A stretch of 64,000 nucleotides of DNA from the NCBI RefSeq assembly GCF_004010195.1, contig NC_057742.1, positions 32,315,101-32,379,100 of the forward strand, in the 5' to 3' direction. The first letter of the stretch is position 1, and each line of letters starts with the position of its first letter. This DNA comes from Chiloscyllium plagiosum. Lineage: Eukaryota. Below are positions 12,571-55,539 of this stretch, piece by piece. The translations under genes were made by a program, and so were the position numbers. Below the pieces are notes generated by a model. The model saw only the letters and a list, made by a program, of their open reading frames with translations, was not told where the DNA came from and ran no database searches.

Positions 12571-15500
12571 TTATTCCAGTAGGTTTATGGCTTTTTCCAA
12601 GTTTTTCCTGCTTTCATTGCGGATCATTTCCCAGGCACATCTATTGTACCCCTATAAAGAGAACAAGAATTAATACCTAGAAGAACAAATACTATAGTCA
12701 CAGAATTAATTAACCAATGTAAAAGCTTTTAATCATTAGAAGGCTTTTTCCTGCTCAATGTAGGATAAATTATACATATACCTTATTTTGCAGAAACATT
12801 CTCAGCTTTTGGAAATATGTACGAATTCTTTTTCTCCCAAACATTTTAAAGTCTGACTGATGTTCTCCTAAATCCTGACTGAGCTCCTTCAGCTGCTGAA
12901 ACAGAAGCATTGCAAACTCCTCCAATCCATTCTTGTCCCACATACTGGAACAGGCATTTGTTCTATAAAGCTTGCTGGTGTGGCGCAATATTTGATAGAA
13001 GATCATAATTTTGTCCTCAGCCTGTATAAAATGCACAACATACTACTCAGCTAATGGTGAAAAGCTTATGAATGCATGAATGTGTTTGAGGGGAAGCTCG
13101 AAAAGCACATGAGGAAAAAGAAATAGAGGTATATGATAAATTGAGATGAAGTAAGTAGGGAAGGACCTAATATGGAAGGCAAACTTTGATATGGACCTTA
13201 ATTTTAAAAATCAAATTACTGTGGATGCTGCAAATCTGAAATAAGAACAAAATAATTTAGAAATATTCAGCAGGTCAGTTAGCATCTGTGTAGAAAAATA
13301 AAATTGATAACCAGGTCATGATTACCTTTCATCTGAACTGAAAAGCCATTTAAACCAGAAACATTAATCCTGTTTCTCTCCTCAGATGCAGTCCAACCTG
13401 CAGAATATTTCCAACACTTATTTGATTTGATTTTAGGTATCATTCAATGGCCTGTACATGATATTCATTTGTAATTTTATTGGTTAGTCACATATAAAAC
13501 CTTTTTTAAGAAAACACTTTTTTCTAAACAAAATACACTGACTTGAAGTTGCTGCTAGTTTGTACCTGTGGAGTCACATTCCATCCCATGAAGACAAAGT
13601 CCATGGAGACCCCAACAGACATGACGGCATCCCTGGAGATGTGAACAAGTCCTTCTCATCTCATAGAAGTAGAAAATGGATCATCAAAAGGAGTTAATGG
13701 CTGGGACAGTAAAAACATTGATCACCTCAGCTATAAGGCAATAGCTAAAGGGAAGCTTTATGAGATATGAAACAGTCTTCAATATCTTTTGGAACATACA
13801 ACCAAAATAGATAGAGCTATTGTGATATCACTTTTGTGTGAAAGTTTTATTCACATTTGAGCAGAGAGCACACAAGTAAACAATCTTTCTCTTTTTCTGT
13901 ACAATACACCTGTTAGGCAATGAAGCCCACCCTGCTGAGAAACAAAAGTGTGTCTATGATCTTACAGCAGACATAGTTTTTACGGAAAGCTGTTGGAGTT
14001 CTACAACACTGATTTCTAGGAGAAAGGAGGATTCGCAACCATAACTTCAAATTAACTGCTTCAGCTGATGAAATCTGTGGATGCAAACAATGAACATGTA
14101 CTGACTGTCCTTTTTATTAATCTGTATTTTAACTTGGCCAAGTTTATCCTCTATATTTTTTCCTATTCCTTACTTGGGGCCTTGGGTTCATGTTGCACTA
14201 CAGGTTACCCAACCACACAATGCACTCTCATACATAGCTGAAACATGTGTTGCTGGAAAAGCGCAGCAACGCAGGAGGCTAAGCCCTTCTCCTGCTCCTT
14301 GGATGCTGCCTGACCTGCTGCGCTTTTCCAACAACACATTTTTCAGCTCTGATATCCAGCATCTGCAGTCCTCACCTTCTCCTACTCTCATACATACACG
14401 AACACACTCATGCAAACACACTCACATAGACCTTCCTCGCTAAATAACCTGAATCTGCATTCTACAACTATACATAATATAATCTTCTGACAATTGTCAA
14501 CTCCCTACCTGCTCTAAATTTTCTTGCCCTCTTCTTCTGAAGTCACTTCCTCTTGCTAGCTACAGTTCCACAGAAACTAAAAGGTCTCTGGTGCAAAGTG
14601 ACCACTGTCAAGATGTCTGAACCTTGATGAGTGTTGACGAATAGCTGATAGGGGTGGGGTGGAGGGGAGGGGAGATGTGGGACATCATAACTCATGCAAA
14701 TCCATATATATTTTTAGCAAAGCTCAGTGGATAGCAATTTGGAGCAAGATTTGAACTTCATATTTTGCTTTCAGTTATCATTTAATGAATGGTGAAAATA
14801 GTGAGAAAATTAGGAAGATAGGCTTGCTGTGGTTCGTCAATGATTTTATGAAACAGAACAATGTAATCAATATTACATAAATTGTAAAACATTTCATTGA
14901 TTTGTAAACTTAATTTTTAAAATTGTAATTGTTCTATTAGTATTTTAAGCATCATAATGATTCAGCATCAGAGAGATAGAATAGTACTTTTACACTCTCG
15001 GGACCAAAGTTTTAATTTAGCCTAAGGTGAAAGATGAAAGTCTTCCCATTCTGTTGGTGTTAGGGCAATATTTAAAATGTTATTAAACAATCTCAACACT
15101 CTATGGTAGCTATGGCTTCAAAAGCAAAAATGTTGAATACCACAATGTGATTTTGACACAAATTGAATTATCTCACACAGAAGATTTATAAGGAGAAATG
15201 ATGTTAGGAATCAGAACTGGTGCTTAAGGAATGCTTTGATGGCATTTGATGGCACAGGCATAGTAACAGCAATCTTAATCTGCATCTAAATTAGACACTG
15301 CCCACAAATGTATTCTTTCCTTGAGTCATGGGGTTAGCTCTTGTCAGAGTTGCCTCAAACTCTGCCTTCTTATTAATTCTCTTGCCTTTTCTGTCACCTG
15401 CATTTATCACAGTGTTGAAATCACCTGCATATTAAATTACCTGGCAATACGTTGTATTGTCTCCCACTCTAACACATTCACTCCTCGGAACAATAACTAT

Positions 15501-16350
15501 AATAGTAGCAAGACTTTTCACCTTTCTTTTATCGATTAACAATTCATTCATATCTTTTCAACATTTTTATGCCCTATGTTCCAGGTCTTGCCACTTCATT
15601 TCAATTTCCTAATAATGGAAAGTTTGAAAGAATTGGTAAAATTTGATTGCAGTTACCTGCATTTCCATTATTCACTTTGGAACTCTCCTGCAACATGTTT
15701 GAAATTAAACACCTGTCAGCTTCAATGTTAATTACCTTTGCCTATTGTCTAAGGTGCAATGGCACCTTCAAAGTTGGGCTTCTGAATACATTGTCATTAT
15801 CAGAAGTGCCATCTATCACCGATCTGCTCAGATGGATGTACTGAGAACCTAAGGCACCATTTCAGAGATGAGCGAGGGAATTTGTCCTGGTATCCTGGAC
15901 AATATTTGAGCTAACATCACACTTCCTACATTACAATCTTCAGAAGCGCTTAACTGGCTGTTAATTCTTCTGGGACGCCCCTTCTATTTCTGTTTTCTCA
16001 ATCTCTGGAATGCATTCATCACAATTAAAGCAAAACGCACAGATTACCTTCGCATTTTTTCCAATCTCCGTCAGGTCAAGGCTTTTGATCTCCATCCCCT
16101 GCTTTCTACAATGAACTGGAAAGGCGCCCCCCTAAAGCAAGAGCAGAGATAGTGTTAAGACATTAGACTCCGCGTTCGGAAGTTCAACTGCATTGAATCC
16201 CATCCGTAAACTCACCATTGCATTCAATATTTCCAAAATTTCGCTGGTGAAACGCCGGTGGAGTTCCATCCTTATTGGATAGTTCTGACTCAAGGCCCCA
16301 AGCAACAGGAACAATGGAAGAACAAATTGCCAAGTGCAAGCCAACGCCAT
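12571..16350 (-). CDS. Type I interferon, 4 exons (IFN-A), 179 aa; retains only the C2-C4 pair plus one extra Cys
   Basis: Exons (minus): 16350-16216 MALACTWQFVLPLFLLLGALSQNYPIRMELHRRFTSEILEILNAM; 16131-16048 GGAFPVHCRKQGMEIKSLDLTEIGKNAK; 13021-12782 AEDKIMIFYQILRH...WDKNGLEEF...TYFQKLRMFLQNK; 12651-12571 GYNRCAWEMIRNESRKNLEKAINLLE*. All introns are GT-AG, phase 0 (84, 3026, 130 nt). Signal peptide, M|GG-FP-C, YF-L-FL and CAWE motifs are type I IFN hallmarks. Confidence 0.93.
14237..14383. mobile_element. Internally deleted palindromic Penelope-like element in IFN-A intron 2
   Basis: Arms 14245-14268 and 14316-14339; TSD ACTCTCATACATA at 14224-14236 and 14384-14396; the hammerhead core is deleted. 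Confidence 0.7.
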
Positions 16351-16544
16351 GCTCCACAGCAAATCTGACCTTTAGTGCCACAAAGTGAATAGTGTGAATA
16401 AAAAGTCCACGTTCAGTATGGAGAAAATTAACGAATAGGGTCTACCGAGTGCCTAAGCTGCTGGACATAGGCTCCGTCCTGTGACTGGACGGAATTGGCT
16501 ATCGGCCGTCAAATAAACCGTATTCTACACACACAACTGTTTAC

Positions 16545-16785
16545 ATCACAAAAATGAAAAATAGTCACATTCATTTTCTGATCTGAGAGGTAAGAAAATG
16601 ATTTCGATGAGGAAAAGTACCGTGCATGTACGTCATGTGTAATCATCGTTGGCAGAGAAAGTACCCGAACAATCAGTTTTTATTTCAGTCAGTTTAGGGC
16701 ATGTGTTGGTCTAAGCGGGACTAGTGCAAAGAGCCAAAAATATCAGGCTACCAAAATAGTGAGTGAAATTGGGACTTCCACAGCA
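16545..16785 (-). promoter_or_regulatory. IFN-A upstream region with IRF/ISRE-like and kappaB-like motifs
   Basis: GAAAATGAA (minus, 16570-16578), GGAAAAGTACC (16611-16621), GGGTACTTTCTC (minus, 16655-16666), AGTTTTTATTTC (16675-16686) and GGGACTTCC (16771-16779), all 200-430 nt upstream of the ATG. Motif match only. Confidence 0.5.
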
Positions 16786-19125
16786 GCCGGCAGCACCGTG
16801 GGGAAGACATGCAAATAATTCTACCTGACCTGTGTGGGGCATCAAACTTGGGAAATCTCTACAGCTGCCCTTGTGGTTGTGGGGCGAAAGAAGGCGGGCG
16901 AGGGATGTTTCACTGAGAAAGCTGCTTTTGGGGAGCGTTTGGGTGGGAGATTCGGGGGGGGAAATAAATAAGCCAGAAGTTTCTCTTCAATTAACGCCAC
17001 TATAGTAATGTGTGATGTAAAGCTAAACAAGGAGAAACTTATAACACTAAACAATAATCCATGCTTATGTCGGTGAATTCTCACTCATAGGTTCTGAACG
17101 AAAATTAATTTCCCAAACTAAATATGGGACAAGATAACTAAGGCCGAGGAAATAAAGGGTACTTGGACCATGGGATGAGGATGTGGGAAGGGTGAGGGGG
17201 TTCGTGGTTGATGATCAAATATGAGGTGACCATAAAGGAGTAGGCTTTGAGGCAACCAACACGTACAACTTCTGTTGAGGAGTCACACTATTCCCATGAA
17301 CCTGTTGGCTTCCTCTCAGCAACCCGGCTTTAATCACTGGCCGAACGCTTCACATTTTTTCCTCCAGCTGTCCTAGAATACGGGGGCAAAGGCGTCCCTT
17401 GAGGGAAACAGGGCAAAGAAACAATCAAAATAGGAGACAGTCCCTCAAAATAAGGCATAGTTGCTGAATGTGTTAAATGTTCTGTTCATATAGAAAGACT
17501 AGGCAGGCTGGCCTAATTGCTGAGCTCCTACATTCCTCTGGGTGGCGATGTACTATTACACTCAGAGGAACTTTACTGAAGAGAAACATCTAAGATCAAC
17601 TTAATTTCGTCATCATATAAAGATGATGGGGAAGCCCTTGAGGTGGTGTGGTAGTGTCCCTATCTCTGAGCCAGGAAGGCCAGGTTCACCTTAGCTCAGA
17701 GTTGTATCATTACATCACTGAACAGGTTAAATAGAAAATAGTTTCTTCTAAGAAAGATGTTGTGGCCATATTGGCAATACCCTACCTATATGCCAGGAGG
17801 CTCAGGTTCATGTCCTACCTGATCCAGAAGTCATAGAATTATAGAGTTTCAAAAGATAGAAGCAGGCCATTCGACCCACTTATTCCGCACCAACCCTCCA
17901 AACAGCATTCCACCCAGACCCACCCCCTACCCTATTCCTTTAACCCTGTATTTCCCATGGCTTACCTACACATCCCTGGACACTGCGGGCAATTTGGCAT
18001 GGCCAATCCACCTAACCCACACATTCTTGCCAAGACATATCTAAACAGGTTGACTATAAATAGGAGCTGTCGTGGCAGTGTCCTTACCTCTGATCTGAGT
18101 TCATGTTCCACCTGTTCTCGGGGTGTGTTATAACACATGTGAACAGGGAGATTAAAAATACCAATAAAGTTGATGGAGTTGTTGACTAGCCACAGCAGTC
18201 TTTTTTTTCCCAGATACCTACAATACACTGAAACATGGTGATATTTTGGAGCTGTAAGTCCAAAATTTATTTAGCTCCCAGCATTCTGTATTCAGCAAAT
18301 ACTATGTTTCAAATTACTATTACATTGCATGTTGAAAATTTTTTTTGGAAAAAATCCATCTCACATAAATGCAAAAAAAATCAATAGCAGCAGCTTCCTT
18401 TTAGTCACTTGTAGCCTGCTGTCAACTTGCTTCCTAAAATATAGTGTTTCACCAGATTAGTGTCATAGAGTCATAACGATGTACAGCATGGAAACAGACC
18501 CTTCGGTCCAACCTGTCCATGCCGACCAGATATCCCAACCCAATCTAGTCCCACGTGCCAGCACCCGGCCCATATCCCTCCAAACCCTTCCTATTCATAT
18601 ACTCATCCAAATGCCTCTTAAATGTTGCAATTGTACCAGCCTCCACCACTTACTCTCACAGCTCATTCCATACACCTACCACCCTCTGCATGAAAACGTT
18701 GCCCCTTAGGTCTCTTTTATATCTTTCCCCTCTCACCCTAAACATATGCCCTCTAGTTCTGGACTCCCCGACCCCAGAGAAAAGACTTTGTCGATTTATC
18801 CTATCCATGCCCCTCATAATTTTGTAAACCTCTATAAGGTCACCCCTCAGCCTCTGACGCTCCAGGGAAAACAGCCCCAGCCTATTCAACCTCTCCCTAT
18901 AGCTCAAATCCTCCAACTCTGGCACCATCCTTGTAAATCTTTTTTGAACCCTTTCAAGTTTCACAACATCTTTCCGATAGGAAGGAGACCAGAATTGCAT
19001 GCAATATTCCAACAGTAGCCTAACCAATGTCCTGTACAGCCGCAACATGACCTCCCAACTCCTATACTCAGTACTCTGACCAATAAAGGAAAGCATACCA
19101 AACACCTTCTTCACTATCCTATCTA

Positions 19126-19208
19126 GGTAAAAACAATGACTGCAGATACTGGAAACCAGATTCTAGATTAGCATGATGCTGTCTGAACTGCTGTGCTTTT
19201 CCAGCACC
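19126..19208. mobile_element. Short Penelope-like terminal fragment with 15-bp TSD
   Basis: Flanked by TCACTATCCTATCTA at 19111-19125 and 19209-19223; contains the family motif CTGCTGTGCTTTTCCAGCA. Confidence 0.7.
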
Positions 19209-19524
19209 TCACTATCCTATCTACCTGTGACTCCACTTTCAAGGAGCTATGAACCTGCACTCCAAGGTCTCTTTGTTCAGCAACACTCCCTAGGACTTTA
19301 CCATTAAGTGTATAAGTTCTGTTAAGATTTGCTTTCCCAAAATGCAGCAGCTCGCATTTAACTGAATTAAATTCCATCTGCCACTTCTCAGCCCATTTGC
19401 CCATCTGGTCCAGATCCTGTTGTAATCTGAGGTAACCCTCTTCACTGTCCACTACACCTCCAATTTGGTGTCATCTGAAAACTGACTAACCGTACCTCTT
19501 ATGCTCGCATCCAAATCATTTATG

Positions 19525-19743
19525 GAGAAAGTGAGGACTGCAGCTGCTGGAGATCAGAGCTGAAAATGTGTTGCTGGAAAAGTGCAGCAGGTCAGGCAGC
19601 ATCCAAGGAACAGGAGAATCGACGTTTCGGGCATAAGCCCTTCTTCAGGAATCCTGAAGAAGGGCTTATGCCCGAAACATTGATTCTCCTGTTCCTTGGA
19701 TGCTGCCTGACCTGCTGCGCTTTTCCAGCAACACATTTTCAGC
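19525..19743. mobile_element. Palindromic Penelope-like element with back-to-back minimal hammerhead ribozyme motifs
   Basis: About 185-nt near-perfect palindrome (19558-19744); TSD TCCAAATCATTTATG at 19510-19524 and 19744-19758; CTGAAGA-A-GGGC-TTAT-GCCC-GAAA on both strands. Confidence 0.8.
19649..19686 (+). ncRNA. Minimal type I hammerhead ribozyme motif
   Basis: GAATC [CTGAAGA 19654-19660] A GGGC TTAT GCCC [GAAA 19674-19677] CA TT GATTC; stem I GAATC/GATTC, stem II GGGC/GCCC. Confidence 0.65.
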
Positions 19744-21939
19744 TCCAAATCATTTATGTAAATGACAAAACATAGAGGACCCAGCACCAATCCTTGTGGC
19801 ACTCCACTGGTCACAGGCCTCCAGTCTGAAAAACAACCCTCCACCACCACCCTCTGTTGACTTCCTTTGAGCCAGTTCTGTATCCAAATGGCTAGTTCTC
19901 CCTGTATTCCGTGAGATCTAACCTTGCTAATCAGTCTCCCATGGGGAACCTTGTCAAATGCCTTACTGAAGTCCATATAGATCACATCTACTGCTCTGCC
20001 CTCATCAATCTTCTTTGTTACTTCTTCAAAAGACTCAATCAAGTTTGTGAGACATGATTTCCCACGTGCAAAGCCATGTTGACTATCCCTAATGAGTCCT
20101 TTCTTTTCCAAATACATGTACATCCTGTCCCTCAGGATTCCCTCCAACAACTTGCCCACCACTGAGGTCAGGCTCACCGGTCTATAGTTCCCTGGCTTGT
20201 CCTTACCTCCCTTCTTAAACAGTGGCACCACGTTTGCCAACCTCCAGTCTTCCGGCATCTCACCTGTGACTATCAATGATACAAATATCTCAGCAATCAC
20301 TTCTCTAGCTTCCCACAGAGTTCTCAGGTACACCTGATCAGGTCATGGGGATTTATCCACCTTTAACCGTTTCAAGACATCCAGCACTTTCTCCACTATA
20401 ACCTGGACATTTTGCAAGATGTCCCCTTTTATTTCCCTACAGTCTATATCTTCCATATCCTTTTCCACAGTAAATACTGATACAAAATATTCATTTAGTA
20501 TCTCCCCCATTTTCTGTGGCTCCACACAAAGGCCGCCTTGCTGACCTTTGAGGGGCACTATTCTTTCCCTGGTTACCCTTTTTTCCTTAATATATTTGTA
20601 AAAACCTTTTGGATTCTCCTTAATTCTATTTGCCAAAGCTATCTCATGTCCCACCTGATTTCCCTCTTAAGTATACTCCTACTTCCTTTATACTCTAAGG
20701 ATTCACTTGATCTATCCTGTCTATACCTGACATATGCTTCCTTCCTTTTCTAAACCAAACCCTCAATTTTTTAGTCATCCAGCATTTCCTATACCTACCA
20801 GCCTTCCCTTTCACTCTGACAGGAATATACTTTCTCTGGATTCTTGTTATCTCATTTCTGAAGGCTTCCCATTTTCCAGCCGGCCCTTTACCTGAGAACA
20901 TCTGCCTCCAATCAGCTTTCGAAAGTTCTTGCCTAATACCGTCAAAATTGGTCTTTCTCCAGTTTAGAACTTCAACTTTTAGATCTAGTCTATCCTTTTC
21001 CATCATGATTTTAAAATGAATAGAATTATGGTCACTGGCCCCAAAGTGCTCCCCCACTGACACCTCAGTCACCTGCCCTGCCTTATTTCCCAAGAGTAGG
21101 TCAAGCTTTGCACCTTCTCTCGTAGGTACATCCACATACTGAATCAGAAAATTGTCTTGTACGCACTTAAGAAATTCCTCTTCATGTAAACCTTTAACAC
21201 TATGGCAGTTGTGAAACTGCCCCCTTTAAACACAATCTGTTTCCTCTGGTTTTGCTGCTCTGCAGAATTTGAAATAGACTGTCATTGTCAAGATTTCCAC
21301 ATTTCATTAAAATATTAATTATGGCAATGACATCACTTCCCAAACTTTTCCACACCGGTGCGAATTTGCCCAATTACATACTCTCTCCTCCAAATCTAGT
21401 TGCTTCACCCACTCAGGTTTTCTTGGTTCACCTTTTTTGCACCTTTTTTCATGTTTGCCCTTTTCTCTGTCATGACTTGCTTCCTCTCTGTCCAACGAAA
21501 TTGATCCTGTTGTGTCAAACTCAATACTTATAGCCTTTGTGACTGCAGTCCTGTCTTCTGCTCCAATATGCCATTCTATCTTCTATGAGATATTAGACAG
21601 AAATCACCACTCAATCCTTCACAGTCATCTCTTGATGCCCTCCTCTTATTGTTCGACTCACAACTGTCCCAAAATATCCAACATACCTGCATGACCCTTT
21701 TCCGTCTCCTACATATTCATGCACGATGCTCCCTGCTTTTCATTTGTGTGATCTCCTCCATTGTTGTCCATAGGTGCTGAGGTAGTTTTTAAATGCCTGA
21801 GGTTGTGTGAAGTAAGAGAACTCTTAGCTCTGTGCCAGAAGCTTATGGATTCAAACACCAATTAAGGAGCTAAGAAAATAATTCATACTTCACTGATATA
21901 ATGGGGAAGTGCCACTTTTCCAGTAAATATGTTTTTTTT

Positions 21940-28279: not shown

Positions 28280-28779
28280 NNNNNNNNNNNNNNNNNNNNN
28301 NNNNNNNNNNNNNNNNNNNNNNNNNNNNNNNNNNNNNNNNNNNNNNNNNNNNNNNNNNNNNNNNNNNNNNNNNNNNNNNNNNNNNNNNNNNNNNNNNNNN
28401 NNNNNNNNNNNNNNNNNNNNNNNNNNNNNNNNNNNNNNNNNNNNNNNNNNNNNNNNNNNNNNNNNNNNNNNNNNNNNNNNNNNNNNNNNNNNNNNNNNNN
28501 NNNNNNNNNNNNNNNNNNNNNNNNNNNNNNNNNNNNNNNNNNNNNNNNNNNNNNNNNNNNNNNNNNNNNNNNNNNNNNNNNNNNNNNNNNNNNNNNNNNN
28601 NNNNNNNNNNNNNNNNNNNNNNNNNNNNNNNNNNNNNNNNNNNNNNNNNNNNNNNNNNNNNNNNNNNNNNNNNNNNNNNNNNNNNNNNNNNNNNNNNNNN
28701 NNNNNNNNNNNNNNNNNNNNNNNNNNNNNNNNNNNNNNNNNNNNNNNNNNNNNNNNNNNNNNNNNNNNNNNNNNNNNNN
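28280..28779. other. Assembly gap (500 N)
   Basis: Run of N; the round number suggests a placeholder size. Confidence 1.
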
Positions 28780-29101
28780 AAGGAAGTTATGGACAGCTTA
28801 GGAATAAAACAATTCAAATCAAATGCATACCATCCAAAATCATGGGGAGCTCCAGAAAGGTGATATCAGATATTAAAGACCATCTTGAGGGCTTGTAGTC
28901 AAGACGATCCTGATGATTGGGAGAAACTAATTCATTTGTAGTTTTTGCCATCAGAGATGCACCAAATGAATCGACCGAATTCAATCCATTTGAATTAGGT
29001 TTTGGGCATGAAGTGAGAGGTCTGCTAAAATTGATTATGGAGAAATTGGTAAGTTATAATTCAGAGACCACATCTTTGGACTATGTATCAAATTTTCAGG
29101 A

Positions 29102-29616
29102 TTTGGAGGTGCCGATGTTGGACTGGGGTGTACAAAGTTAAAAACCACACAAAACCAGGTTATAGTCCAACAGGTTTATTTAGAAGCATGAGCTTTCGGA
29201 GCATGGCTCCTTCATCAGGTGGTTCATCAACCACATGATGATAGAGCGGAGCTCTGAAAACTAGTGCTTCCAAAGAAACCGGTTGGGGTGGCACGATGGC
29301 TCAGTGGTTAGCACAGTTGCCTCACAGCACCAGGGTCCCAGGTTCAATTTCAGCCTTGGGTGACTGTCTGTGTGGAGTTTGCACACTCTCCCCGTGTTTG
29401 TGTAGGTTTGCTCTGGTTTCCTCCCACAGTCCAAAGATGTGTGGGTCAGGTGAATTGGCCATGCTAAATTGCCCATAGTGATAGGTGCATTAGTCAAAGG
29501 GAAATGGGTCTGGGTAGGTTACTCTTTGGAGGGTCGGTGTGGACTGTTGGTTGGGCCGACGGGCCTGTTTCCACACTGTAGGGAATCTAATCTAATAACC
29601 TGGTGTTGTGTGATTT
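29102..29616. mobile_element. Palindromic Penelope-like element with a nested SINE (29285-29595, +)
   Basis: Hammerhead motif on minus at about 29188-29222 (CTGATGA AGGAGC CAT GCTCC GAAA GC TC); flanked by AATTTTCAGGA-like direct repeats; the SINE interrupts the right arm. Confidence 0.7.
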
Positions 29617-30429: not shown

Positions 30430-30760
30430 TGGGTGGCACGGTGTGGTGGCTCAGTTGTTTGCACTGCTGCCTCACAGCTCCAGTTCAATTTCGGCCTCAG
30501 GCGACTGTCTGCGTGGAGTTTGCATATTCTCCCTGTGTCTGTGTGCGTTTCCTCCCACAGCCCAAAGATGTGCAGGTTAGGTGAATTGGCCATGCTAAAT
30601 TGGCCATAGTATCCAGGGATGTGGAGGCTAGGTGCATTAGTCAGGGGAAATGTAGAGTAATAGGGTTGGGGAATAGGTCTGCGTGGGATACTCTTCAGAG
30701 GGTCAGTGTGGACTTGTTGGGCCAAATGTCTTGTTTCCACACTGTAGGGATTCTAATCTT
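30430..30760 (+). mobile_element. SINE inserted in the Gypsy RT
   Basis: Same SINE family as 21940-22255; it interrupts RT between AKSI and AFVM. Confidence 0.85.
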
Positions 30761-34088: not shown

Positions 34089-36130
34089 TTAAGATGATCG
34101 CTTGGCCTCCCTCTGAATTCGTCCTATTATGGTTTGAATCTGCTGTAAGTAAGACATGGTGCGAGAGCGGACTCTTTCCCAGGCACAGTCACTGAATCCC
34201 TGAAAGGCAAAAATATTGAAACATGTTAGCAGGACTGCACCGAATTTTAAGGGAATACAAAAGTTGCACATTATTTGAAAGCCATACTCCAGTTTTCGCG
34301 TGAGAATATCAGCATTCATTTGATCTCAGTCATTTTTGGGCATTGCTAATATCATGATGCTGATTTTAACGTGATAATTAAATGATCAGAATTTAGATTT
34401 ACCTACAGTGTGGAAACAGGCCCTTCAGCCCAACCAGTCCACACTGACCCTCTGAAGAGTAAGGAGAAATTGAGGTCTGCAGATGCTGAAGAGTAACCCA
34501 ACCAGACCCATTTCCCTCTGACTAATGCACCTAGCACTATGGGCAATTTAGCATGGCCAATTCACCTAACCTGCACATCTTTGGACTGTGGGAGGAAACC
34601 CATGCAGACACGGGGAGAATGTACAAACTCCACCAAGACAGTCACCCGAGGCTAGAATTGAACCTGGGACTGGCTCCAGTGAGGCAGTAGTGCTAACCAC
34701 TGAGCCACGGTGCCACCCTTGAGCTACTGATATTGGAAGCCAAATTTTCTAAGGAATTTCACTAGACATTCTCAGCAGAGAAACTCTTCACTAATACATC
34801 TCTCGTCAGCCCTAGTCTGAGTAGTGACAAAGTTATGGACCTTGCTACATGGTTTGTCTACACGAACTTCACTAGATGTAAAATAGTAAAACATGAATCG
34901 CCCATACCTGTTGCGTTAGCAGCTCCCTCATCTTGCTGAAGTCCTGTTGAATTTCCTCGCTTCTAGTGGACGCTGCAGGGTCTCCCACACATCCGTTCAG
35001 ATTTGTCAGCTGCTCACTCAGATGAATCAGAAAGGTTTCCAGCCGGTCAGAGTCCCAGGGAGCAGTATTGAGGTTCTCAATGAAGATCTTGTTGATTTGA
35101 TCCAATGCTTGGTGGATAAGCAGGAGTGTGTCTTCCCCCTGTTGGACACAAAAAAATGTTACTTCGCGGAAATGTGTCACTATTCGAATTTTAAAAGAAT
35201 TATTTAGAACCTGAGAAAAATGAGCAAGGCTGGGCCATTCCGCCATTCAAGACCATCTTGAATTCCTTGTTTTTTTTCTCCATTCAGAATCTCAGATCTA
35301 CTCAAGGACGACGTGATCAGAAACCTCTGGGATGGAGAATTCCACAGATTCACCACCTTCTGAATGAAGGGATTCCTCCACATTTCAGTCCTACAAAGCC
35401 TGCTAGTTACTCCAAATTATTTGGAGGAGCTAGTGTTGGACTGGGGTGTACAAAGTTAAAATCACCCAACACCAGATTATGGTCCAACAGGTTTATTTGG
35501 AAGCACTAGCTTTTGGAGCGCTGCTCCTTCATCAGGTGGTTGTGAAGTATAAGATCATTAAGATCCAGGTCTTTTTCAATACATAATTTCAGTTACATCA
35601 TACTGTAAACTTTTGCTATAAACTCTGTGTCTTACGATCTTATACTCCACAACCACCTGATGAAGGAGCAGCGCTCCGAAAGCTAGTGCTTCCAAATAAG
35701 CCTGTTGGACTCAAACCCGGTGCTGTGTGATATTTAGCTCACTTACTCTAAGGTATAGCTTTGTGATCCAGTATTATTTTAACATTGAGAATACTGAGTA
35801 TTTTGCTAGGTACAACTCAGAATCTGTGCTGGCTACATACCTGAATATTTTCCGTGAGATCAATGAGTGAATGGCCATGGGGCATTCGTGTCATTTTCAG
35901 GCAGCGCAGACTGAGTTTTCTACCCTGCAACACGAAATTCAGAGGTTAAAAATGCCACATACACAAATCCTGGCGAGGGGAATAGATCAAGATCAGTTCA
36001 GACGCACCATTAAAGTCAGTTTGCTTTTCGTCTCAGCATTGTGGAATGCCAACTGCTCGCAGCCCAGAGTCAGGCTACAGGGCACCAAGACTAGCGCCAC
36101 CCAAAATCTCCAGATACAAGAAAGAGCCAT
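34089..36130 (-). CDS. Type I interferon, 4 exons (IFN-B), 182 aa; 4-cysteine type, divergent from the others
   Basis: Exons (minus): 36130-36008 MALSCIWRFWVALVLVPCSLTLGCEQLAFHNAETKSKLTLM; 35924-35841 GRKLSLRCLKMTRMPHGHSLIDLTENIQ; 35138-34908 GEDTLLLIHQALDQINKIF...PWDSDRLETF...LNGCV...RELLTQQ; 34199-34089 GFSDCAWERVRSRTMSYLQQIQTIIGRIQREAKRSS*. GT-AG phase-0 introns (83, 702, 708 nt). CAWE-VR motif and four conserved Cys. Confidence 0.93.
34393..34718 (-). mobile_element. SINE in IFN-B intron 3
   Basis: Same SINE family as 21940-22255. Confidence 0.85.
35420..35742. mobile_element. Palindromic Penelope-like element (second family) in IFN-B intron 2
   Basis: Inverted arms at about 35455-35556 and 35636-35739; the same family occurs at 29102-29616. 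Confidence 0.72.
35654..35688 (+). ncRNA. Minimal type I hammerhead ribozyme motif (antisense to IFN-B intron 2)
   Basis: CAC [CTGATGA 35657-35663] A GGAGC AGC GCTCC [GAAA 35678-35681] GC TA GTG; palindromic AGCT helix-III loop and stem I CAC/GTG. Confidence 0.7.
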
Positions 36131-36319
36131 GTTCAGCAGGACAGTGCGGATCTGAAATAGAGAGATATCGTTATTAGACAGCAACCTTCAGCAAAGTGAC
36201 TTAAGTGCTCCTGAGGCGGTGATAATAGCAGCGTTCTTACTTCTTGGTGATGGACCCCGCTCTAAGAGACACGACTAATGTCAGAGTCAAGAGTGAACTG
36301 ACAGATTGGAGCGCCATGG

Positions 36320-36605
36320 CGAATATAAAGAATAATGCTTGCATTAGAAAAGTGAAACACCGGATTTACAGCACCTCAAGAAATTTTCTAGCCACATTCG
36401 TTTTTCAAAATGAGAGGAATTTACGTTGAAAAAGAAGACAATCGAAAAGGAAGAGAGTTAGTCTGCAAGAAACAAAAACAAAACCCTCAAATGTTGCTCG
36501 CAGGCTGCATTGGTAAACCGCACTGTTCACAACTGAGGAAATGTCAAAGTCTGGTTGCATGTGAATCAAAAACAAAACTGCACAGACTCAGCGGGAAAAT
36601 TTCCT
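36320..36605 (-). promoter_or_regulatory. IFN-B promoter: TATA-like box, IRF element, kappaB-like site
   Basis: TTTATAT on minus at 36323-36329; GAAAAGTGAAAC at 36347-36358 (canonical IRF-E); GGGAAAATTTCC at 36593-36604. Confidence 0.6.
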
Positions 36606-37487: not shown

Positions 37488-37496
37488 CTTCTACAA

Positions 37497-43869: not shown

Positions 43870-44000
43870 AATTAAGCAGAAAGTGAAAAATTCCAAATGA
43901 AGAAGTCACTTTGAGAACGGAGTTGAAAGATTCCCTGAAAATACATTGTGGTTAGAAGCAAAATCAATCTGTTTTTATAACGTCAAAGGAATACCCTGGT
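43870..44000 (+). promoter_or_regulatory. IFN-C promoter: IRF element, TATA-like box, CRE half-site and kappaB-like site
   Basis: GAAAGTGAAA at 43879-43888 (PRDI-like); TATAA at 43976-43980 overlapping ACGTCA; GGAATACCC at 43988-43996. The block is conserved in the IFN-D promoter. Confidence 0.62.
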
Positions 44001-44148: not shown

Positions 44149-45534
44149 ATGAACTTTACCGGTGTCTGGGGACTGTGCACTTTGTTTGTCTTGTTGCCTG
44201 GAATCCTGAGCCAGGACTGCCAGAGACTGCAGTTACAGCAAGTGCTAAACAGGGATGCTCTAAAGATCCTGACGGACATGGTGAGTTAATAGAAAGATCA
44301 GTGGTACGGGCAAGACAATTCTCATCTTAAACCTGCAGTTTCTCGGGATATTCTCACTTCCAGAAATTGTTCAGGTTGGGCGTTTTGCATCATGCTATGA
44401 GGAATATCTCCTTGAGAGAATAGTCAAGTATGTATGAAAATACGAAATGAAATGTATGGAAAACAGGACGTTTTTACAGCGGAAGTGGCTGATTTAATTA
44501 GGCAGACAGTTAAATATGTGAGGTAAAATCGGGAAGCAAATTGTTCAGTGATAATGAATAGCCGTAGATGCTTTGGGGGAAACATTTCTAACTACTTGTT
44601 TGTGTTCGGAGCCGCTTCTGACACTTTCTGTCCTATTATAGGGAGGGTCCTTTCCACTGCAGTGTGTAGCAACCAGAGAATCACTGCAAATCGATCCCCT
44701 GGATCTGCACCAGCTCGTCAACCGGTCACAGGTGAGTGTGTTCCTTGTAAACCCTCAGTTCGCCCAGGTGGAATAAATGTAGGGAAATATCTCCAATCCA
44801 GCCAAAACAAGAAGTTTGGCAATGATCCCAAATGTTGGTCTGAAAGTTCAACGTATCTGTGATGAATAAACAGGCTAGAAATGTTTTGAAGTTAATTTCT
44901 TCTTTTTCGTAATTGTTGCTGTTAACTTGTCAGCCAGACACAGGATAGTGCAATAGAAAGCACCTCGGTATTAATCAGTATTGTTAAAAACAATATTGAT
45001 GATGCCTTTGTAAATTCAAACAGCCTATATATTTGCAGTTTCAAATGTCGATTGCAATAGTCAGTTACACGAGAAATGTCCTGTGTATTTTTCTCAGGCC
45101 CAGGAAAAGTTCCAGATTGTCCACCAAACCTTGCGTCACATCAGCAAGATCTACAGCAGGAGCCTGGGGTCAGTCACCTGGTCCCGGGAGAAGGTCGAAA
45201 ACTTTCGTCTTCTCCTGGAACGTCAGCTCCAGGAGTTGGAAACGTGTGTGAGAAAACCAGGAGCTGGGTCCAGGCAGAGGAGAAACTCCGCCATTCTCAA
45301 ATACTTCAAGAAACTGAACAAGTTTCTCAAACAGAAGGTGTGACAATTGATAACTGACTGGCATTCAGTTCATGTCAACCCATTTAAATCTGTTCAATTT
45401 TCTAATGGGGTTTTCTCTATGTTTGCATTTTACAGAAATTCAGTGACTGCTCCTGGGAAATAATCCGCACTGAGACCAGAGCCCGTCTACAACAGCTGCT
45501 GTTCATAACGGGACAACTGAACAAAAGCAACTAA
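44149..45534 (+). CDS. Type I interferon, 4 exons (IFN-C), 186 aa; 4-cysteine, cationic
   Basis: Exons: 44149-44280 MNFTGVWGLCTLFVLLPGILSQDCQRLQLQQVLNRDALKILTDM; 44642-44731 GGSFPLQCVATRESLQIDPLDLHQLVNRSQ; 45098-45337 AQEKFQIVHQTLRH...LETCV...KYFKKLNKFLKQK; 45436-45534 KFSDCSWEIIRTETRARLQQLLFITGQLNKSN*. GT-AG phase-0 introns (361, 366, 98 nt). CSWE variant of the CAWE motif. Confidence 0.95.
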
Positions 45535-45843
45535 GGATTTCCCATTGATACTTATTAAAATCAGGGATCGATTATTATTTAATATTTAAATATTGAAGTT
45601 TTACAGAAGTGTTGCATAGCTCGATTAAGGGAATCAAGCCAGTATAATTCTGAATGACATTTGTTCAGAGTAATCTAATTAACAACATGACCTTAATATT
45701 CAAAGCGAGGTTGATATTTATCTGGAATATGAACATATTTAAAATGCAAAATATTTGTATGTTCAAGTCGCTGAAATATGTATGTTATTTTGTAAACTAT
45801 TTATGACAAGAGATGTTGCTCAATTACACCAATTAGTAATAAA
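45535..45843 (+). promoter_or_regulatory. IFN-C 3' UTR with AU-rich elements and polyA signal
   Basis: About five ATTTA pentamers (e.g. TTATTTAATATTTAAA near 45575-45590) and AATAAA at 45838-45843. Confidence 0.7.
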
Positions 45844-47371
45844 TCTTTTGAATTTTAGCATTTTATTTTGTGGTCTTTGTTTCTACACGAGGTTCATGTC
45901 TGTTGGGAATGTTAGATGACCTGGGTGGCTGATTTGCAGTAACGCCAACAGTTTGGGCTCACTTCCCTGGCTGATGTCCCCATCAAGGACTATCCTCCTC
46001 ACCTTCTCCCCTCACCTGAAGTCTGGTGACCCTAAGTCACCGCTGTCTAATGGTAGAACCATAGGTCTGATCTATGGTAGCTTCTTCATCCTGCAGTTGG
46101 GGAGGGGATGTCGCGTAGCCCAGTATTACCTTGCAGTGCCCTTGAGCTGGGAACTTCCGGTTTCGACTCCCATCTGGAAGGAATCCTAATGACGAGATTC
46201 TAACAGCCATCGTCATAATCTTTCCAAAACTTCCCCACGAGGTGCTAAAGGAAGACGGAATATGAAGATACCATGTTAACACTGTCCTACATGACCCCTG
46301 TGAATACCTGCAGTATAAATATCAGGCACCTTTCTGAAAGAGATCTTGTTACTTTGAGTCGATGATTAGCCTACGGAAAGACTGAATCCGAATACACACA
46401 GATTGGGCATGTACACCAACGGCTCAAACGAGATCGTATTCCAATACTAAATTAGTTTAAATAAGAACGGAGAAACCTTATAACTCTTTTAAACATTTAA
46501 TCGTTATCAATCGGAACACAGTGCAGCTAAACGTGTTAGTTTACATGGTGAAGCTGTAACCTTCTTGCTTCTTTGAAATGTGTGAAGGCATACATTTGGA
46601 ACGTACATTTGGAAATGTTCATGGCTTTTTCATGCAGCCTTCCGAATCCTGATTGCCATTGACTAAATGTTACATTAGAGAGAAAAAAAAATCGAACTAT
46701 TTGCAACGCTGAAGGTAGCTGGATGCGAATTACACAAATTGCAGAGCAATGTAATGAAATCTGAGCAAATGAAACTGCCTCACTGTGTTGGAAGAATGCA
46801 AGTGTAGTCAGAACAGGCAGCACTCGCTGCCCGCTCAGCGTGCAATAACAATTTCCACACGGGAAAAGTTGTTTGAATGTGTCAAGCGAAGAGATGGCGG
46901 CTGTGAATCTCCTCTCTCCGTCACACAGTGCGGTCTCCACTCTGGAACATCAGAAATTCTGGGCAAAACGATTTACCACGTAAATAGATCCCGGCGTTGG
47001 AGTAAATCAGGGTCCGGTCAAATATATTATTTCGTTCAGAGTGCTTACAGTCTCTGTGCTTGTGAATTGCTGTAATTACATTCTCTCACAGCCCAACCTC
47101 CAGATCCGGGTTCACCTGCTACTTTTGTCATTATTGAAAGTTTTTTTCTTGTGAGTCCCTGGGATGAATTCCAGTAAGCGCATTGACTTCTTGTCAGAGC
47201 CATCCACAAAAATGGCCGAGCAGGTAATCATCAATCAGGATCCAACAAAAATTTTCAAGTGTTCATTCGTGGGTGAACAAATTTTGCATTCAAAAAAAAA
47301 TTCTTCTCGTTGGATTTACTTCTAAATGGAGGGGTCGGTTTGCTCGATTGAGAGCGAGAGAGAGAAGGTAG

Positions 47372-49620
47372 CTTTTTATTTGTCATTTCTACCATATACA
47401 TCCGATGCAGTAAAAGCGAGACAGCGTTCCTCCAGTACAGAGGGTGCTACATTGACAGCGCCAACTATAGAATCGTACACGGCATTAAGTGGATAAGCAG
47501 TGCAAAACACACATGTTACAGTGTAACAAAAGAATGATGAATGATTGACATTTTTTCTAGCAGCAAGACGAAAGAATTTTAGATGGGAAAGAATCTGATC
47601 ATACTGTGTTAAGGAGTCGGATGGCTTGGGGAAGAAACTGTTGCAAAGTCTGGCAGTGAGAGACCGAATGATCTGGTATCTTTTGCCCGATGGCAAGAGG
47701 GAGCAGAGTCTGAGTGAGGGGTGTGTGGGGTCTTCCATAATGCTCTTAGCCTTTCGGATGCAGCTTGTAATGGAGGGAAAAGAGACCGCTACGATCTTCT
47801 CAGCTGTCCTCACTATCTGTCGTAGGGTGTTACCATCCGAGATGGTGCAATTCCTGAACCAGGCAGTGATGCAACAACTCAGGGTACTCTCAAAGAACTA
47901 TCTGTAGAATGTGGTAAGATCGGGGAATGCGAGGAGGAGGAGGACTTTCTCAGCCTGCGCAGAGAGTAAAAAAACACTGCTGGGTTTTCTTGGCTCCTGA
48001 GCTGGTGTTGAGGGTCCAGGTGAGATTCTCCACCAGGTGTACACCAAGAAATTTGGTGCTCTTCACGATCTCCACAGGGGAGTCGTCAATGTCCAGTGGA
48101 GAGTGATCTCTCTATGCCCTCCTGAAGTCTATTTTGTTTTGTCCACGTTCAGAGACTCTGGCTCTGCACCAGTCTGTTAGCCGCTGTACCTCCTCTCTGT
48201 ATACTGACTCATCGTTCCTGCTGATGAGGCCCACTCCAGTCGTGTCATCAGCAAACTTGATGATGTGATTGGACCTGTGGATCACTGCACAGTCGTCTGT
48301 CAGCAGGGTGAACTGCAGTGGACTGTCCTGTAGAGTGATGGTGCTGGAGATGCTGTTCCCGATCTGGGCTGACTGAGGTCTCCCAGTCAGGAAGTCCAGG
48401 ATCCAGTTACACAGGGAGGGATTTAGGCCCAGCAGACTCAGCCTTCCAATCAGGTGCTGAGGGATGATGGTGTTAAATGCAGAACTGAAATCTATGATTA
48501 GTAGGCTAACCTTCTTCTCCAGCTGGGTGAGGGCCAGATGGAGGGTGGTGGAATTGGCATCATCTGGTGAGCTGGGTGGATACACGAACGACAGGGTGTC
48601 CAGTGAGGAGGGAAGCAGGGTCTTAATATGTCTCATCATGAGCCTTTCGAAGCACTTCATTTCATGGGTTTAAGTGCAACAGGGTGGTAGGTTATTGAGA
48701 CAGGACGCTGAAGACTTCTTTGGCATGGGGATGATGGCAAAGTCCTTAAAGCACATTGGAACTATGGCGCAGCTCAGCGAGATCTTGAAGATGTCTGTGT
48801 GAATAACCACCAGTACGTCAGAGCACCCTCTGAGCACTCTGCCAGGGATGTTATCTGGTCCAGCAGCCTTACTTGGGTTGACTCTGCATGGAGTTATCCT
48901 CACATTGACCGTGGTAAGACACAGCACCTGGTCATTGGGAGGAGGTGCAGACTTCCTTGCTGCCACATTGTTTCATGCCTCAAACCATGCATAAAAGTTG
49001 TTCAACTCACCCGGGAGTGAGGCATCACCAGCACAAGCAGGCAATGCTGTTCTGTGGATGGTGATGGCCTGGATGCCCTTCCACATGCTCTGCGTATCGC
49101 CTCTGACCTGAAAGTGGCTGTGTACTCTGTGTGTGTGTTTGTACGCTTTACCTCTTTGATGGCCTGGGTCAGGTTGGCCCTCACTGTTGTTAGGGCCACC
49201 TTGTCACCTGTTCTGAAGGCAGAATCACGGGTTCTCAGCAGCGCACACACCTTTGTGGTCATCCAAGGCTTCTGGTTGGGGTGAGACGTGATGGTTTTGG
49301 ACACAGTGATATCATCATTACACTTGCTAATGTCATAAATCACCAAGGGAGTGTACTCCCCTAAGGTGATGGAGTCATCATCGGTTGCCACCTCCTCAAA
49401 CTTGCGCCAGTCAGTGTGCTCAAAACAATATTGAAGAGTAGAAATGGCCTGCTGGCCAGGTTTTCACCTGCTTTGAAATGATTTGACACAACGAGTGGTC
49501 TGTATGCTGGGATTAGCATCACAGAGGTGTGGTCTGAGAAGCTGAGTTGGTGCCCGGACTCTGCCCTATATGGTTTGGGGATGTTTGTGTTAACCAGATT
49601 GGGGGATGTTTGTGTTAACC
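47372..49620 (-). mobile_element. Rex1/Babar-like LINE, decayed ORF2
   Basis: [63 protein letters not shown]. Confidence 0.88.
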
Positions 49621-49675
49621 AGATTGGCTAATTGATTTGAGTGCAGGACAGAATATAACTAATGGCACAGTTCTG

Positions 49676-52459: not shown

Positions 52460-52605
52460 AATTAATCGGAAAGCGAAAAGTTTCAAATGAAGAAGTCACT
52501 ATATGAAGTTGGGTTGGGAGGAGCAGTAGTTGTAAGATTCCCTAGCACACTGCGGTTAGAAGCAAACTCGATTCGTTTTTATAACGTCAAAGGAATACCC
52601 TGGTG
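52460..52605 (+). promoter_or_regulatory. IFN-D promoter: IRF element and TATA-like box
   Basis: GAAAGCGAAA at 52469-52478; TATAA at 52580-52584 followed by CGTCAAAGGAATACCC, identical to IFN-C. Confidence 0.62.
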
Positions 52606-52758
52606 TACACCTTTAAGATGTGCGCATCTCACCCAAAAGGAATATTCCTTAAAACCCACCGGGGAAGGAGTTCACCTCGTGTTGTTACCGTTTGTGGAGC
52701 TGAAATCCAGTCCACTCCCACTCTGCAGCTTCAGATCGCTGTCTTGTATTGTTTAAAC

Positions 52759-55539
52759 ATGGGTTTTCCTGGTGTCTGGGGATTGTGCAGCTTGTTTGTC
52801 TTATTGCCCGGAATCCTGAGCCAGGACTGCCAGAGACTACAGTTACAGCAAGTGCTAAACAGGGATGCTCTAAAGATCCTGACGGACATGGTGAGTTAAT
52901 AGAAAGATCAGTGGTACGGGCAAGGCAATTCTCATCTTAAACCTGCAGTTTCTCGGGATATTCTCACTTGCAATTGTTGAGATTGGGTGCTTTTCACCAT
53001 GCTGTGTGGAATGCCTCCTTGAGAGAATAGTCACGTTGGTATAAAAATGCGAAATGAAATGTGTGGAAAAACAGGACGTTTTTATAACGAACGTGGCTGA
53101 TTTAGTTAGGAGGAGAGTTAAATACCGTGGAAGTGTGGCGCTGGAAAAGCACAGCCAGTCAGGCAGCATTGGAAGAGCAGCAGAGTTGACGTTTAGAACA
53201 AGATGGAGGTGGGGGTAATGGTGATAGGTCAGAGAGAGAGTGGAGCGGATAGGTGGTAAGGAAGATGGACAGGTAGGACAGTTCAAGAGGATGGGTGCCC
53301 AGTTGGAGCTGGGATAAGGGGAGGGGAAATTAAACTGGTGAAATCCACATTGATTCTGTGTGGTTGGAGGGTCCTAAAGCGGAAGATGAGGTGTTCTTCC
53401 TCCAGGCGTCAGGTGGCGAGAATTTGGAGGCAGGGGAGGCCCAGGACTTACATGTCCTTTGCAAGTGGGAGGGGGAGTTAAAGTGTTAGCCCACAGGGGT
53501 TGCTTAGTGCGTGTACCCCAGAGATGTTCTCTGAAACGTTCCGAAGGAAATGTGACTGTAGTAGCGGGTCTGCTTCAGGACATAAAAGCAAATTACTGCG
53601 GATGCTGGAATCTGAAACCAAAAGAGAAATTGCCGGAAAATCTCAGCAGGTCTGGCAGCATCTGTAAGGAGAGAAAAGAGCTGACGTTTCAAGTCTAACT
53701 GACACTTTGCCAAAGCTGACAAAGGGTCAATTAGACTCGAAACGTCAGCTTTTTTCTCTCCTTACAGATGCTGTCAGACCTGCTGAGATTTTCCAGCATT
53801 TTCTCTTCTGTTCCAGGACATGACTGAAGAGCTTCAGGACACAGGAGAGGAGCTGGGGGGTGCAGTGAGAGAGAGAGCGACTCACTGAGATCCTTGTAGA
53901 GGGAGGAAGAGAAATTGTTCAAATTAGGTATCCTTGGAAGAGGCTTCACAGCAATGTTATAATCAACTAGGAGAAAGTGAGGGCTGCAGGTGCTGGAGAT
54001 CAGAGTGGAAGAGTGTGGTGCTGGAAAAGCACAGTCTATCAGTCAGCATCGGAATAGCAGGAGAGTCGACGTTTCCAGCATAAGCCCTTCATCAGGAATG
54101 AAGAGGACTGAGAGATAAGGGGAGGGGGTGTCTTGAGAATGGGGTAAGGTAGCTGGCAATGCCATTGGTAGATGAGGTGGGGGTGAAGGGGGCCTGTCCA
54201 TCTTCATCCCCACCTACCTGCTCCACCCTCCTCTCTGAAATATCACATTGAAGTTGATATTTCAGAGACGAGGGTGGAGCAGCTAGGTGGGAATGAAAAT
54301 GGACAGGTCCCCTTCACCCCCACCTTCACCTACCTCTTGCATTCACAGCTATTTTCCTCCAGCCCCACCTCCTCCCATTTTTCTCTCCGTCCCCTTGGGC
54401 CACCCCTCATTCTTGATGAAGAGATTATGCGCAAAACGTTGATTCTTCTGCTCCTCGGATGATGGCTAACCGGCTATGCTTTTCCAGCAACATACACTTC
54501 GATCCTTCGGACAGTTAAATATGTGAGGTAAAATCGGGAAGCAAATTGTTCAGTGATAATGAATGGCCGTAGATGCTTTGGGGGAAACATTTCTAACTAC
54601 TTGTTTGTGTTCGGAGCCGCTTCTGACACTTTCTGTCCTATTATAGGGAGGGTCCTTTCCACTGCAGTGTGTAGCAACCAGAGAATCACTGCAAATCGAT
54701 CCCCTGGATCTGCACCAGCTCGTCAACCGGTCACAGGTGAGTGTGTTCCTTGTAAACCCTCAGTTCGCCCAGGTGGAATAAATGTAGGGAAATATCTCCA
54801 ATCCAGCCAAAACAAGAAGTTTGGCAATGATCCCAAAAGTTGGTCTGAAAGTTCAACGTGTCTGTGATGAATAAACAGGCTAGAAATGTTTTGAAGTTAA
54901 TTTCTTCTTTTTCGTAATTGTTGCTGTTAACTTGTCAGCCAGACACAGGATAGTGCAATAGAAAGCACCTCGGTATTAATCAGTATTGTTAAAAACAATA
55001 TTGATGATGCCTTTGTAAATTCAAACAGCCTATATATTTGCAGTTTCAAATGTCGATTGCAATAGTCAGTTACACGAGAAATGTCCTGTGTATTTCTCTC
55101 AGGCCCAGGAAAAGTTCCAGATTGTTCACCAAACTTTGCGTCACATCAGCAAGATCTACAGCAGGAGCCTGGGGTCAGTCACCTGGTCCCGGGAGAAGGT
55201 CGAAAACTTTCGTCTTCTCCTGGAACGTCAGCTCCAGGAGTTGGAAACGTGTGTGAGAAAACCAGGAGCTGGGTCCAGGCAGAGGAGAAACTCCGCCATT
55301 CTCAAATACTTCAAGAAACTGAACAAGTTTCTCAAACAGAAGGTGTGACAATTGATAACTGACTGGCATTCAGTTCATGTCAACCCATTTAAATCTGTTC
55401 AATTTTCTAATGGGGTTTTCTCTATGTTTGCATTTTACAGAAATTCAGTGACTGCTCCTGGGAAATAATCCGCACTGAGACCAGAGCCCGTCTACAACAG
55501 CTGCTGTTCATAACGGGACAACTGAACAAAAGCAACTAA
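52759..55539 (+). CDS. Type I interferon, 4 exons (IFN-D), 186 aa; mature protein identical to IFN-C
   Basis: Exons: 52759-52890 MGFPGVWGLCSLFVLLPGILSQDCQRLQLQQVLNRDALKILTDM; 54647-54736; 55103-55342; 55441-55539. Exons 2-4 sit exactly 10005 nt downstream of the IFN-C exons. Intron 1 is 1756 nt because of a ~1.4 kb insertion. Confidence 0.95.
53125..54512. mobile_element. Composite Penelope-like insertion (~1.39 kb) in IFN-D intron 1
   Basis: Absent from IFN-C intron 1; flanked by AGTTAAATA (53116-53124, 54513-54521); the ends are inverted copies of the GTGTTGCTGGAAAAGCACAGC motif; internal hairpin at 53623-53806. Confidence 0.75.

Follow-up and report, generated by a model that had tools for sequence, protein, structure and literature searches.

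Four type I interferon genes with four exons each at one end of an interferon cluster in the bamboo shark Chiloscyllium plagiosum

The locus and its genes

The DNA analyzed here is a stretch of 64,000 nucleotides from the bamboo shark Chiloscyllium plagiosum (positions 32,315,101-32,379,100 of NC_057742.1, contig C33), in the following called the window; positions are those of the window unless C33 or another contig is named. It contains four intact four-exon type I interferon (IFN) genes, designated A to D (Table 1). A first-pass annotation had described this set from the sequence, and its observation is confirmed: two genes lie on the minus and two on the plus strand, all 16 exon lengths are divisible by three, no frame contains an internal stop, and each of the 12 introns is GT-AG and of phase 0. 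The outermost ends of the set agree with those given earlier (12571 and 55539), and B and C stand head to head about 8 kb apart, with 8,019 nt between the start codons. Exon 3 measures 80 codons in A, C and D and 77 in B. An N-terminal hydrophobic leader (judged by eye), conserved cysteines and the motif C-[AS]-W-E are present in all four genes. Pairwise protein identity is 27% for A-B, 33% for A-C, 32% for B-C and 98% for C-D; the approximate isoelectric point, calculated from residue 21 onward, is 9.5 for A, 6.5 for B and 10.2 for C and D.

Table 1. Genes, promoter elements and sequence tracts in the window
Feature	Position	Strand	Description
Gene A, type I IFN	12571..16350	-	4 coding exons: 16350-16216, 16131-16048, 13021-12782, 12651-12571; 179 aa; basis: exon models, Pfam, whale shark orthologue, tree
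Gene B, type I IFN, near-neutral	34089..36130	-	Exons 36130-36008, 35924-35841, 35138-34908, 34199-34089; 182 aa; basis: exon models, Pfam, RefSeq suffix, tree
Gene C, type I IFN, basic	44149..45534	+	Exons 44149-44280, 44642-44731, 45098-45337, 45436-45534; 186 aa; basis: exon models; identical to XP_043530573.1
Gene D, type I IFN	52759..55539	+	Exons 52759-52890, 54647-54736, 55103-55342, 55441-55539; 186 aa; basis: exon models; identical to XP_043530574.1
Putative IRF-like + ATF/CEBP-like element	16541..16559	-	209 nt before A ATG; promoter pattern
Same putative element	36339..36357	-	227 nt before B ATG; promoter pattern
Putative IRF-type GAAANNGAAA site	43879..43888	+	C promoter; motif search
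Putative IRF-type GAAANNGAAA site	52469..52478	+	D promoter; motif search
Upstream mini-exon of B, doubtful	36303..36317	-	Five codons; implied by 194-aa RefSeq model; 151-nt GT-AG intron
Short C/D tract	44182..44359	+	178 nt; 97.8% identity with 52792-52969; covers the larger part of exon 1 and the first part of intron 1
Long C/D tract	44505..46337	+	99.4% identical to 54510-56342; end of intron 1, exons 2-4, ~800 nt of 3' flank; 1,833 nt
High-copy repeat insert in D intron 1	53125..54509		~1.4 kb; absent from C

Gene models and annotation

Independent gene models share the predicted junctions. C and D are identical to their Chiloscyllium plagiosum RefSeq models, B equals the last 182 of the 194 residues of XP_043530572.1 from the same species, and A is co-linear with the whale shark interferon beta-like protein XP_020391693.1, which is 179 aa long, 87% identical to A and has the same cysteines. 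The RefSeq names (alpha-1-like, phi 4, a3-like) do not mirror orthology. When searching with exon 3 of A among proteins of 141-2000 aa we found no protein of Chiloscyllium plagiosum, and the one match among two candidates was that of the whale shark, in which the gene is annotated; a truncated, shorter A model could exist. Further A orthologues, from horn shark, devil ray and sawshark, came from the full HMMER scan. The earlier remark that the genes may be incompletely annotated applies at most to A, since B, C and D are already RefSeq models.

At least one gene, A being the likeliest candidate, might be intact yet silent or decaying. This would fit the missing bamboo shark protein in the size range searched and the broken first exons found upstream in the cluster. 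We regard it as highly improbable given the identity and equal length of A and its whale shark counterpart, the orthologues in three further species and the retained promoter element; none of the nine indels among those listed falls in an A exon. Directly after the A stop codon, contigs of two other DNA runs (X1, and X13 from a related species) both carry a 13-nt insertion; given this, the window has either a small deletion in the 3' untranslated region (UTR) or an error at position 12568.

For B, the 12 extra N-terminal residues of XP_043530572.1 imply a five-codon upstream exon (Table 1) and thus five coding exons. An in-frame ATG, a GT donor and a pyrimidine-rich AG acceptor surround the 151-nt intron, and alternative 5' exons are known for trout IFN1 (PMC3828176). 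The upstream ATG follows the conserved promoter element by about 20 nt and a TATA-like run by a few bases, so it would precede the likely transcription start, and the sawshark B orthologue begins at the downstream Met. The extra exon is therefore spliceable but probably lies before the transcription start, and a five-exon B seems unlikely. In some database IFN models, exon 2 or 3 is preceded by a short N-terminal peptide that lacks a leader, which is reminiscent of the intracellular isoforms of trout IFN (PMC3828176).

Type I interferon identity

Exon 3 of all four genes matches Pfam PF00143 (Interferon) above the cut-off of 26.8 bits (35.3-46.1 bits). Three fourth exons scanned match below the cut-off, and seven first and second exons scanned gave no match. 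Full-length database proteins score 97.2 (C), 97.2 (D), 72.7 (B) and 95.7 bits (A orthologue). In a six-frame search of the species' own genome we obtained 11 matches, eight on C33 (four of them in the window) and three on small contigs, and none in 14 control genomes. The family match of the four genes is therefore not due to chance. Matches to other Pfam families, such as Exo84_C, are stray and all below cut-off. In the PDB, all 21 sequence matches are type I IFNs, with zebrafish IFN2 as the best. Fold evidence comes from the whale shark orthologue of A, whose AlphaFold model stands proxy for A-D: it has a pLDDT of 89.5 and forms a long-chain helical bundle that matches solved type I IFNs. 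The first 26 of its Foldseek matches among those listed are all type I IFNs, headed by grass carp IFNa (TMq 0.74). The type I assignment of the first-pass annotation thus stood up to both the Pfam and the structure comparison.

The exon layout by itself would also suit a type II (IFN-gamma-like) gene or another class II cytokine, as IFN-gamma universally has four exons and three introns, with intron 3 lost (PMC5332411). Such an identity is hardly conceivable here: PF00143 alone passes a cut-off, the PDB sequence matches and top fold matches are type I IFNs without exception, the C-[AS]-W-E motif occurs in all four genes, and neither the IFN-gamma family profile nor, in the modeled orthologue of A, the IFN-gamma fold was found. 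We therefore rejected it.

Cysteine patterns and the fused third exon

The four-exon form of cartilaginous-fish type I IFN, with four coding exons and three phase-0 introns, is already published, and the loss of intron 3 in these genes is stated there (PMC5332411). Teleost type I genes have five exons, with Cys3 encoded in exon 3 (PMC12232857). Codon 50 of exon 3 encodes Cys3 in B, C and D, and no intron follows. This bears out the earlier proposal that exon 3 corresponds to bony-fish exons 3 and 4; the intron missing from A-D is the canonical intron 3. One database protein has, relative to a homologue, a 28-residue insertion at the Cys3 point, which may be a read-through intron 3.

B (Cys24, 49, 119, 151) and C (Cys24, 52, 124, 159) each have four cysteines, and the pattern is identical in B and C/D. 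A contains mature Cys53 and Cys158, corresponding to Cys2 and Cys4, together with an extra Cys97, and lacks Cys1 and Cys3; its orthologues lack these two as well where the alignment covers the columns. The cartilaginous-fish 2-Cys form is described as keeping Cys2 and Cys4 and losing Cys1 and Cys3 (PMC5332411). A and its orthologues belong to this 2-Cys IFN1 form. In addition A has Cys97, a residue that it shares with three sharks and that is missing from the ray orthologue. The proteins of B, C and D would likely form two disulfides each, and A one (Cys53-Cys158) with a free Cys97. A, B and C/D had been separated earlier by cysteine pattern, charge and sequence; three distinct types remain, but the cysteine pattern sets apart only A.

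Three lineages

A maximum likelihood (ML) tree was calculated from 47 sequences, namely the four window genes, two exon 3+4 pieces from upstream and 41 proteins hand-picked from 192 (185 alignment columns, JTT+G4, ultrafast bootstrap (UFBoot) support). A joins whale shark, horn shark, sawshark and devil ray (UFBoot 100), B joins sawshark and sevengill (100), and C/D belongs to a lineage in which rays are also found (97). Together, all chondrichthyan sequences form one group with a support of 88, and of 0.945 in a FastTree analysis of 158 sequences, which agrees with the ML lineages; from this set, six duplicates or odd models and every protein shorter than 140 or longer than 240 aa had been excluded. 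A grouping of A with an elephant shark protein that also lacks Cys3 was discarded, as the ML tree contains no such split.

All three lineages have members in other shark orders and two contain rays. A, B and C/D are therefore old lineages rather than local variants. Support for deeper placement is weak here and has been reported as weak in PMC6640115 too; the Table S2 rows of that paper include, among the matches listed, elephant shark, Squalus and a single catshark IFN1.

C and D encode one mature protein

C and D differ at nine codons. Three of the differences are non-synonymous, all in the signal peptide (residues 2, 4 and 11), and the mature proteins are identical. C and D are one mature protein under two promoters and not a pair of variants. 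Along the pair, identity alternates: 84.7% in the promoter, 97.8% in the short tract, 83.1% in mid-intron 1, then the insertion in D, and 99.4% in the long tract. At non-coding sites we counted 9 mismatches in 1,404 positions of the long tract versus 70 in 442 of promoter and mid-intron 1 (Fisher p=1e-35), and within intron 1 one mismatch in the first 79 nt versus 24 in the middle 142 (p=2e-4), both p-values being optimistic because the tract ends were picked by eye. The Jukes-Cantor distance falls from 0.18 in unconverted non-coding DNA to 0.006 in the long tract. As the mosaic also affects non-coding sites, selection on the protein is not the explanation. The simplest reading of this pattern is gene conversion between C and D in two tracts: the pair stems from an old tandem duplication that was likely homogenized afterwards in at least two tracts, leaving one mature cytokine behind two different promoters.

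Alternatively, C exons 2-4 and the 3' flank could have been duplicated recently, by unequal crossing-over, behind an older paralogous promoter and first exon. Homology ending at 46358/56362 with nothing detectable beyond, and the sharp 5' edge of the long tract beside the repeat insertion, would agree with this. One crossover leaves the separate 98% tract within the older 5' part unexplained, however. Furthermore, the related species of run X13 also has the junction of the D insertion and its shared block differs from the window at 18 of 835 bases; the block forms one contig at about 1.8 times single-copy depth, although depth gives no more than a hint. Paralogues from whale shark and zebra shark cluster together (98) and not with C or D. 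We consider a recent partial duplication doubtful and retain gene conversion.

The high identity across 1.83 kb also raises the question of whether D is an assembly artefact, in which the other haplotype of C would stand in tandem with the first. The neighboring assembly has gaps, and X1 contigs carry C's letters at most C/D differences. Against this, the two promoters differ by 15%, X1 and X13 contigs bridge the insertion-to-block junction (54391-54557, 54311-54566), an X13 contig bridges the block-to-flank junction (56300-56598), and run X5 holds both a C-form contig and the D intron-1 junction. An artefact is thus very improbable: D is real, since contigs of other DNA runs bridge its junctions and show C's form as well. 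In X1, contig depth is 4-6 on A and the D flank, 14.5 across the 5' portion of D and about 20 over the block common to C and D. For window 52580-56342 this hints at two to three D-type copies in that individual, though depth is not copy number and only a lead; unequal crossing-over in the 10,005-nt period would yield such extra copies.

Possible exon-restricted conversion in other sharks

For six sharks we compared the two first-exon types, taking one pair per species picked by hand; all proteins had been retrieved with C exon 3. Within species (n=6), identity in exon 3 is 87%, versus 78% between species for the same type (n=30). The relation is reversed in exon 1 (48-49% within versus 72% between species) and exon 2 (53% versus 64%). 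From these comparisons exon 3 appears to have been homogenized across old subtypes in five of the six pairs; the remaining pair (76%) is without it. Homogenization of exon 3 is not universal, since bamboo shark C exon 3 is identical to the upstream genes at only 46-54 of 80 positions.

Taken together, these data allow a wider reading, which we put forward tentatively, as somewhat less likely than not. Shark IFNs would be exon-modular: promoter and exons 1-2 would keep a subtype identity as old as the split of the shark orders, and the fused exon 3 would be repeatedly overwritten by conversion within each lineage, so that subtypes differ mainly in regulation and the N-terminal surface. C/D would be a fresh case, whose copy number may differ between individuals, and A an unstudied pan-elasmobranch lineage with one disulfide and a free cysteine, which could use the second IFNAR2-type chain. 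Concerted evolution of IFN1 clusters is discussed in PMC6640115. In the literature searched, which mostly lacked subscription papers, no paper was found that deals with the IFN1 genes of the bamboo shark or with conversion at the level of exons in shark IFN1; in the bamboo shark genome paper, interferon appears in the references only.

Promoters and 3' ends

A 19-nt promoter pattern, which we take to combine an IRF-like and an ATF/CEBP-like motif, occurs five times in 194,739 bases, always at a distance of 197-258 nt upstream of an IFN start codon, those of A and B included; the pattern was built after seeing the alignment, so its chance figure of 0.002 does not amount to a test. C and D have a decayed copy of this element and a GAAANNGAAA site, presumably of IRF type, 270 (C) and 290 nt (D) upstream, with 0.08 expected per 450 nt. 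Putative IRF-type motifs are thus present in all four promoters. None of the four matches the NF-kB consensus pattern used, and a search of the assembly for further C/D-type promoters returned two matches, C and D themselves. A conserved splice acceptor in the 5' UTR of all four genes was dropped as a candidate, being absent from the upstream genes. In the 700 nt after the stop codon, ATTTA occurs once in A, eight times in B and five times each in C and D (1.4 expected).

The surrounding cluster

The window holds the end of a larger IFN cluster that is interrupted by gaps. The repertoire, earlier called small, is not so: 24-71 kb ahead of the window start there are at least four further exon 3+4 pairs. 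The upstream part (C33:32,223,644-32,291,325) contains four such pairs and at least four near-complete first exons among many gaps; one of the first exons ends abruptly after codon 30, and another has no GT donor. These first exons carry two promoter types, and two of them lie in tandem, 2.4 kb apart. The gaps together with conflicting orientations suggest local misassembly. Upstream-type IFN exons also occur on the small unplaced contigs C40339, C90510 and C50047, the copy on C50047 with an in-frame stop in exon 3. Within the window, per-exon tblastn (E 0.5) found no second signal-peptide exon 1.

About 350 kb before the window, at C33:31,965,632, one exon matches Hormone_1, which places it in the growth-hormone family without resolving it to GH. 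The elephant shark IFN cluster is linked to GH (PMC5332411), and the flanks of zebrafish IFN genes include GH and PLEKHM1 (PMC12232857). A second somatotropin-family gene lies on another contig (C39:6,489,396-6,491,837).

Between A and B lies a decayed long terminal repeat (LTR) retrotransposon (26302-33271) with SCAN, reverse transcriptase and RNase H pieces and terminal repeats about 78% identical. Fragments of long interspersed nuclear elements (LINEs) were noted at 10663-11294, 18468-21225, 47376-49463 and 62097-62753, two with RVT_1 matches, and a GDSL-like open reading frame lies among LINE fragments at 62 kb. The window also contains many short repeats, some forming inverted pairs (19557-19745, 35454-35739, 53619-53810, 54008-54500).

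Interpretation and significance

By analogy with known IFN biology, virus sensing would likely switch on A-D, with IRF3/7 binding the IRF-type sites. The transcripts are likely spliced as predicted, and AU-rich 3' ends would make the mRNAs of B, C and D short-lived. Signal peptides would direct secretion, and the secreted proteins would act through the type I interferon receptor and IFNAR-JAK-STAT signaling. The cluster would sit between a growth-hormone-family gene and a RUN-domain gene. As a whole, four type I IFN genes at one end of a cluster, working in this way, very probably describe the locus correctly.

Several points weigh against this description. Splicing, induction and activity of A-D are predicted, and the fold membership of A is modeled on its whale shark orthologue, not on A. 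Deep nodes of the tree are weak, placement with IFNf receiving a support of 41. A shows no enrichment of AU-rich motifs, RefSeq gives B a fifth, upstream coding exon, and C and D show no homology outside 43832-46358/52431-56362, their tract ends being those set by eye. The RUN-domain exon, 36 kb beyond the window end, scores 18.1 bits and stays below the cut-off of 22; its gene is presumably PLEKHM1.

On the RNA side, no data set among those listed contains exons 3-4 of A. Raw reads of run X21 (about 2% sampled) fall in repeat bins only, with zero depth over the exon bins of A and D, a result uninformative for the expression of an inducible gene.

The architecture was already known and three of the four genes are annotated; the earlier interpretation is supported. 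What is added are the gene model of A, the lineage structure and the C/D conversion mosaic. The model of A, the correction to B and three deep lineages can be used for a group poorly sampled in published IFN trees. Should conversion limited to single exons be general in sharks, IFN1 trees built from whole proteins mix two histories, which bears on the question of birth-death versus concerted evolution raised in PMC6640115. One mature cytokine with two promoters offers a simple natural test of regulatory divergence.

Comparison with known interferon systems

The closest published systems are elephant shark IFN1-3 and Squalus IFN1/2 (PMC5332411, PMC6640115). They share with the bamboo shark genes the four exons and three introns with intron 3 lost, the tandem cluster, in the bamboo shark probably linked to a growth-hormone-family gene as well, and the occurrence of both 4-Cys and 2-Cys (Cys2+Cys4) forms. 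In contrast to them, the bamboo shark has three deep elasmobranch lineages side by side in a larger cluster, and shark A genes have the extra Cys97. As in the concerted evolution of IFN1 described in PMC6640115, paralogues are more alike within than between species; here, however, the likeness is limited to tracts, across sharks mainly to exon 3, whereas exon 1 keeps the old subtype identity. Teleost group II (4-Cys) IFNs and IFNf resemble the genes in fold, phase-0 introns and four cysteines, but teleost genes have five exons and the teleost 2-Cys form keeps Cys1 and Cys3.

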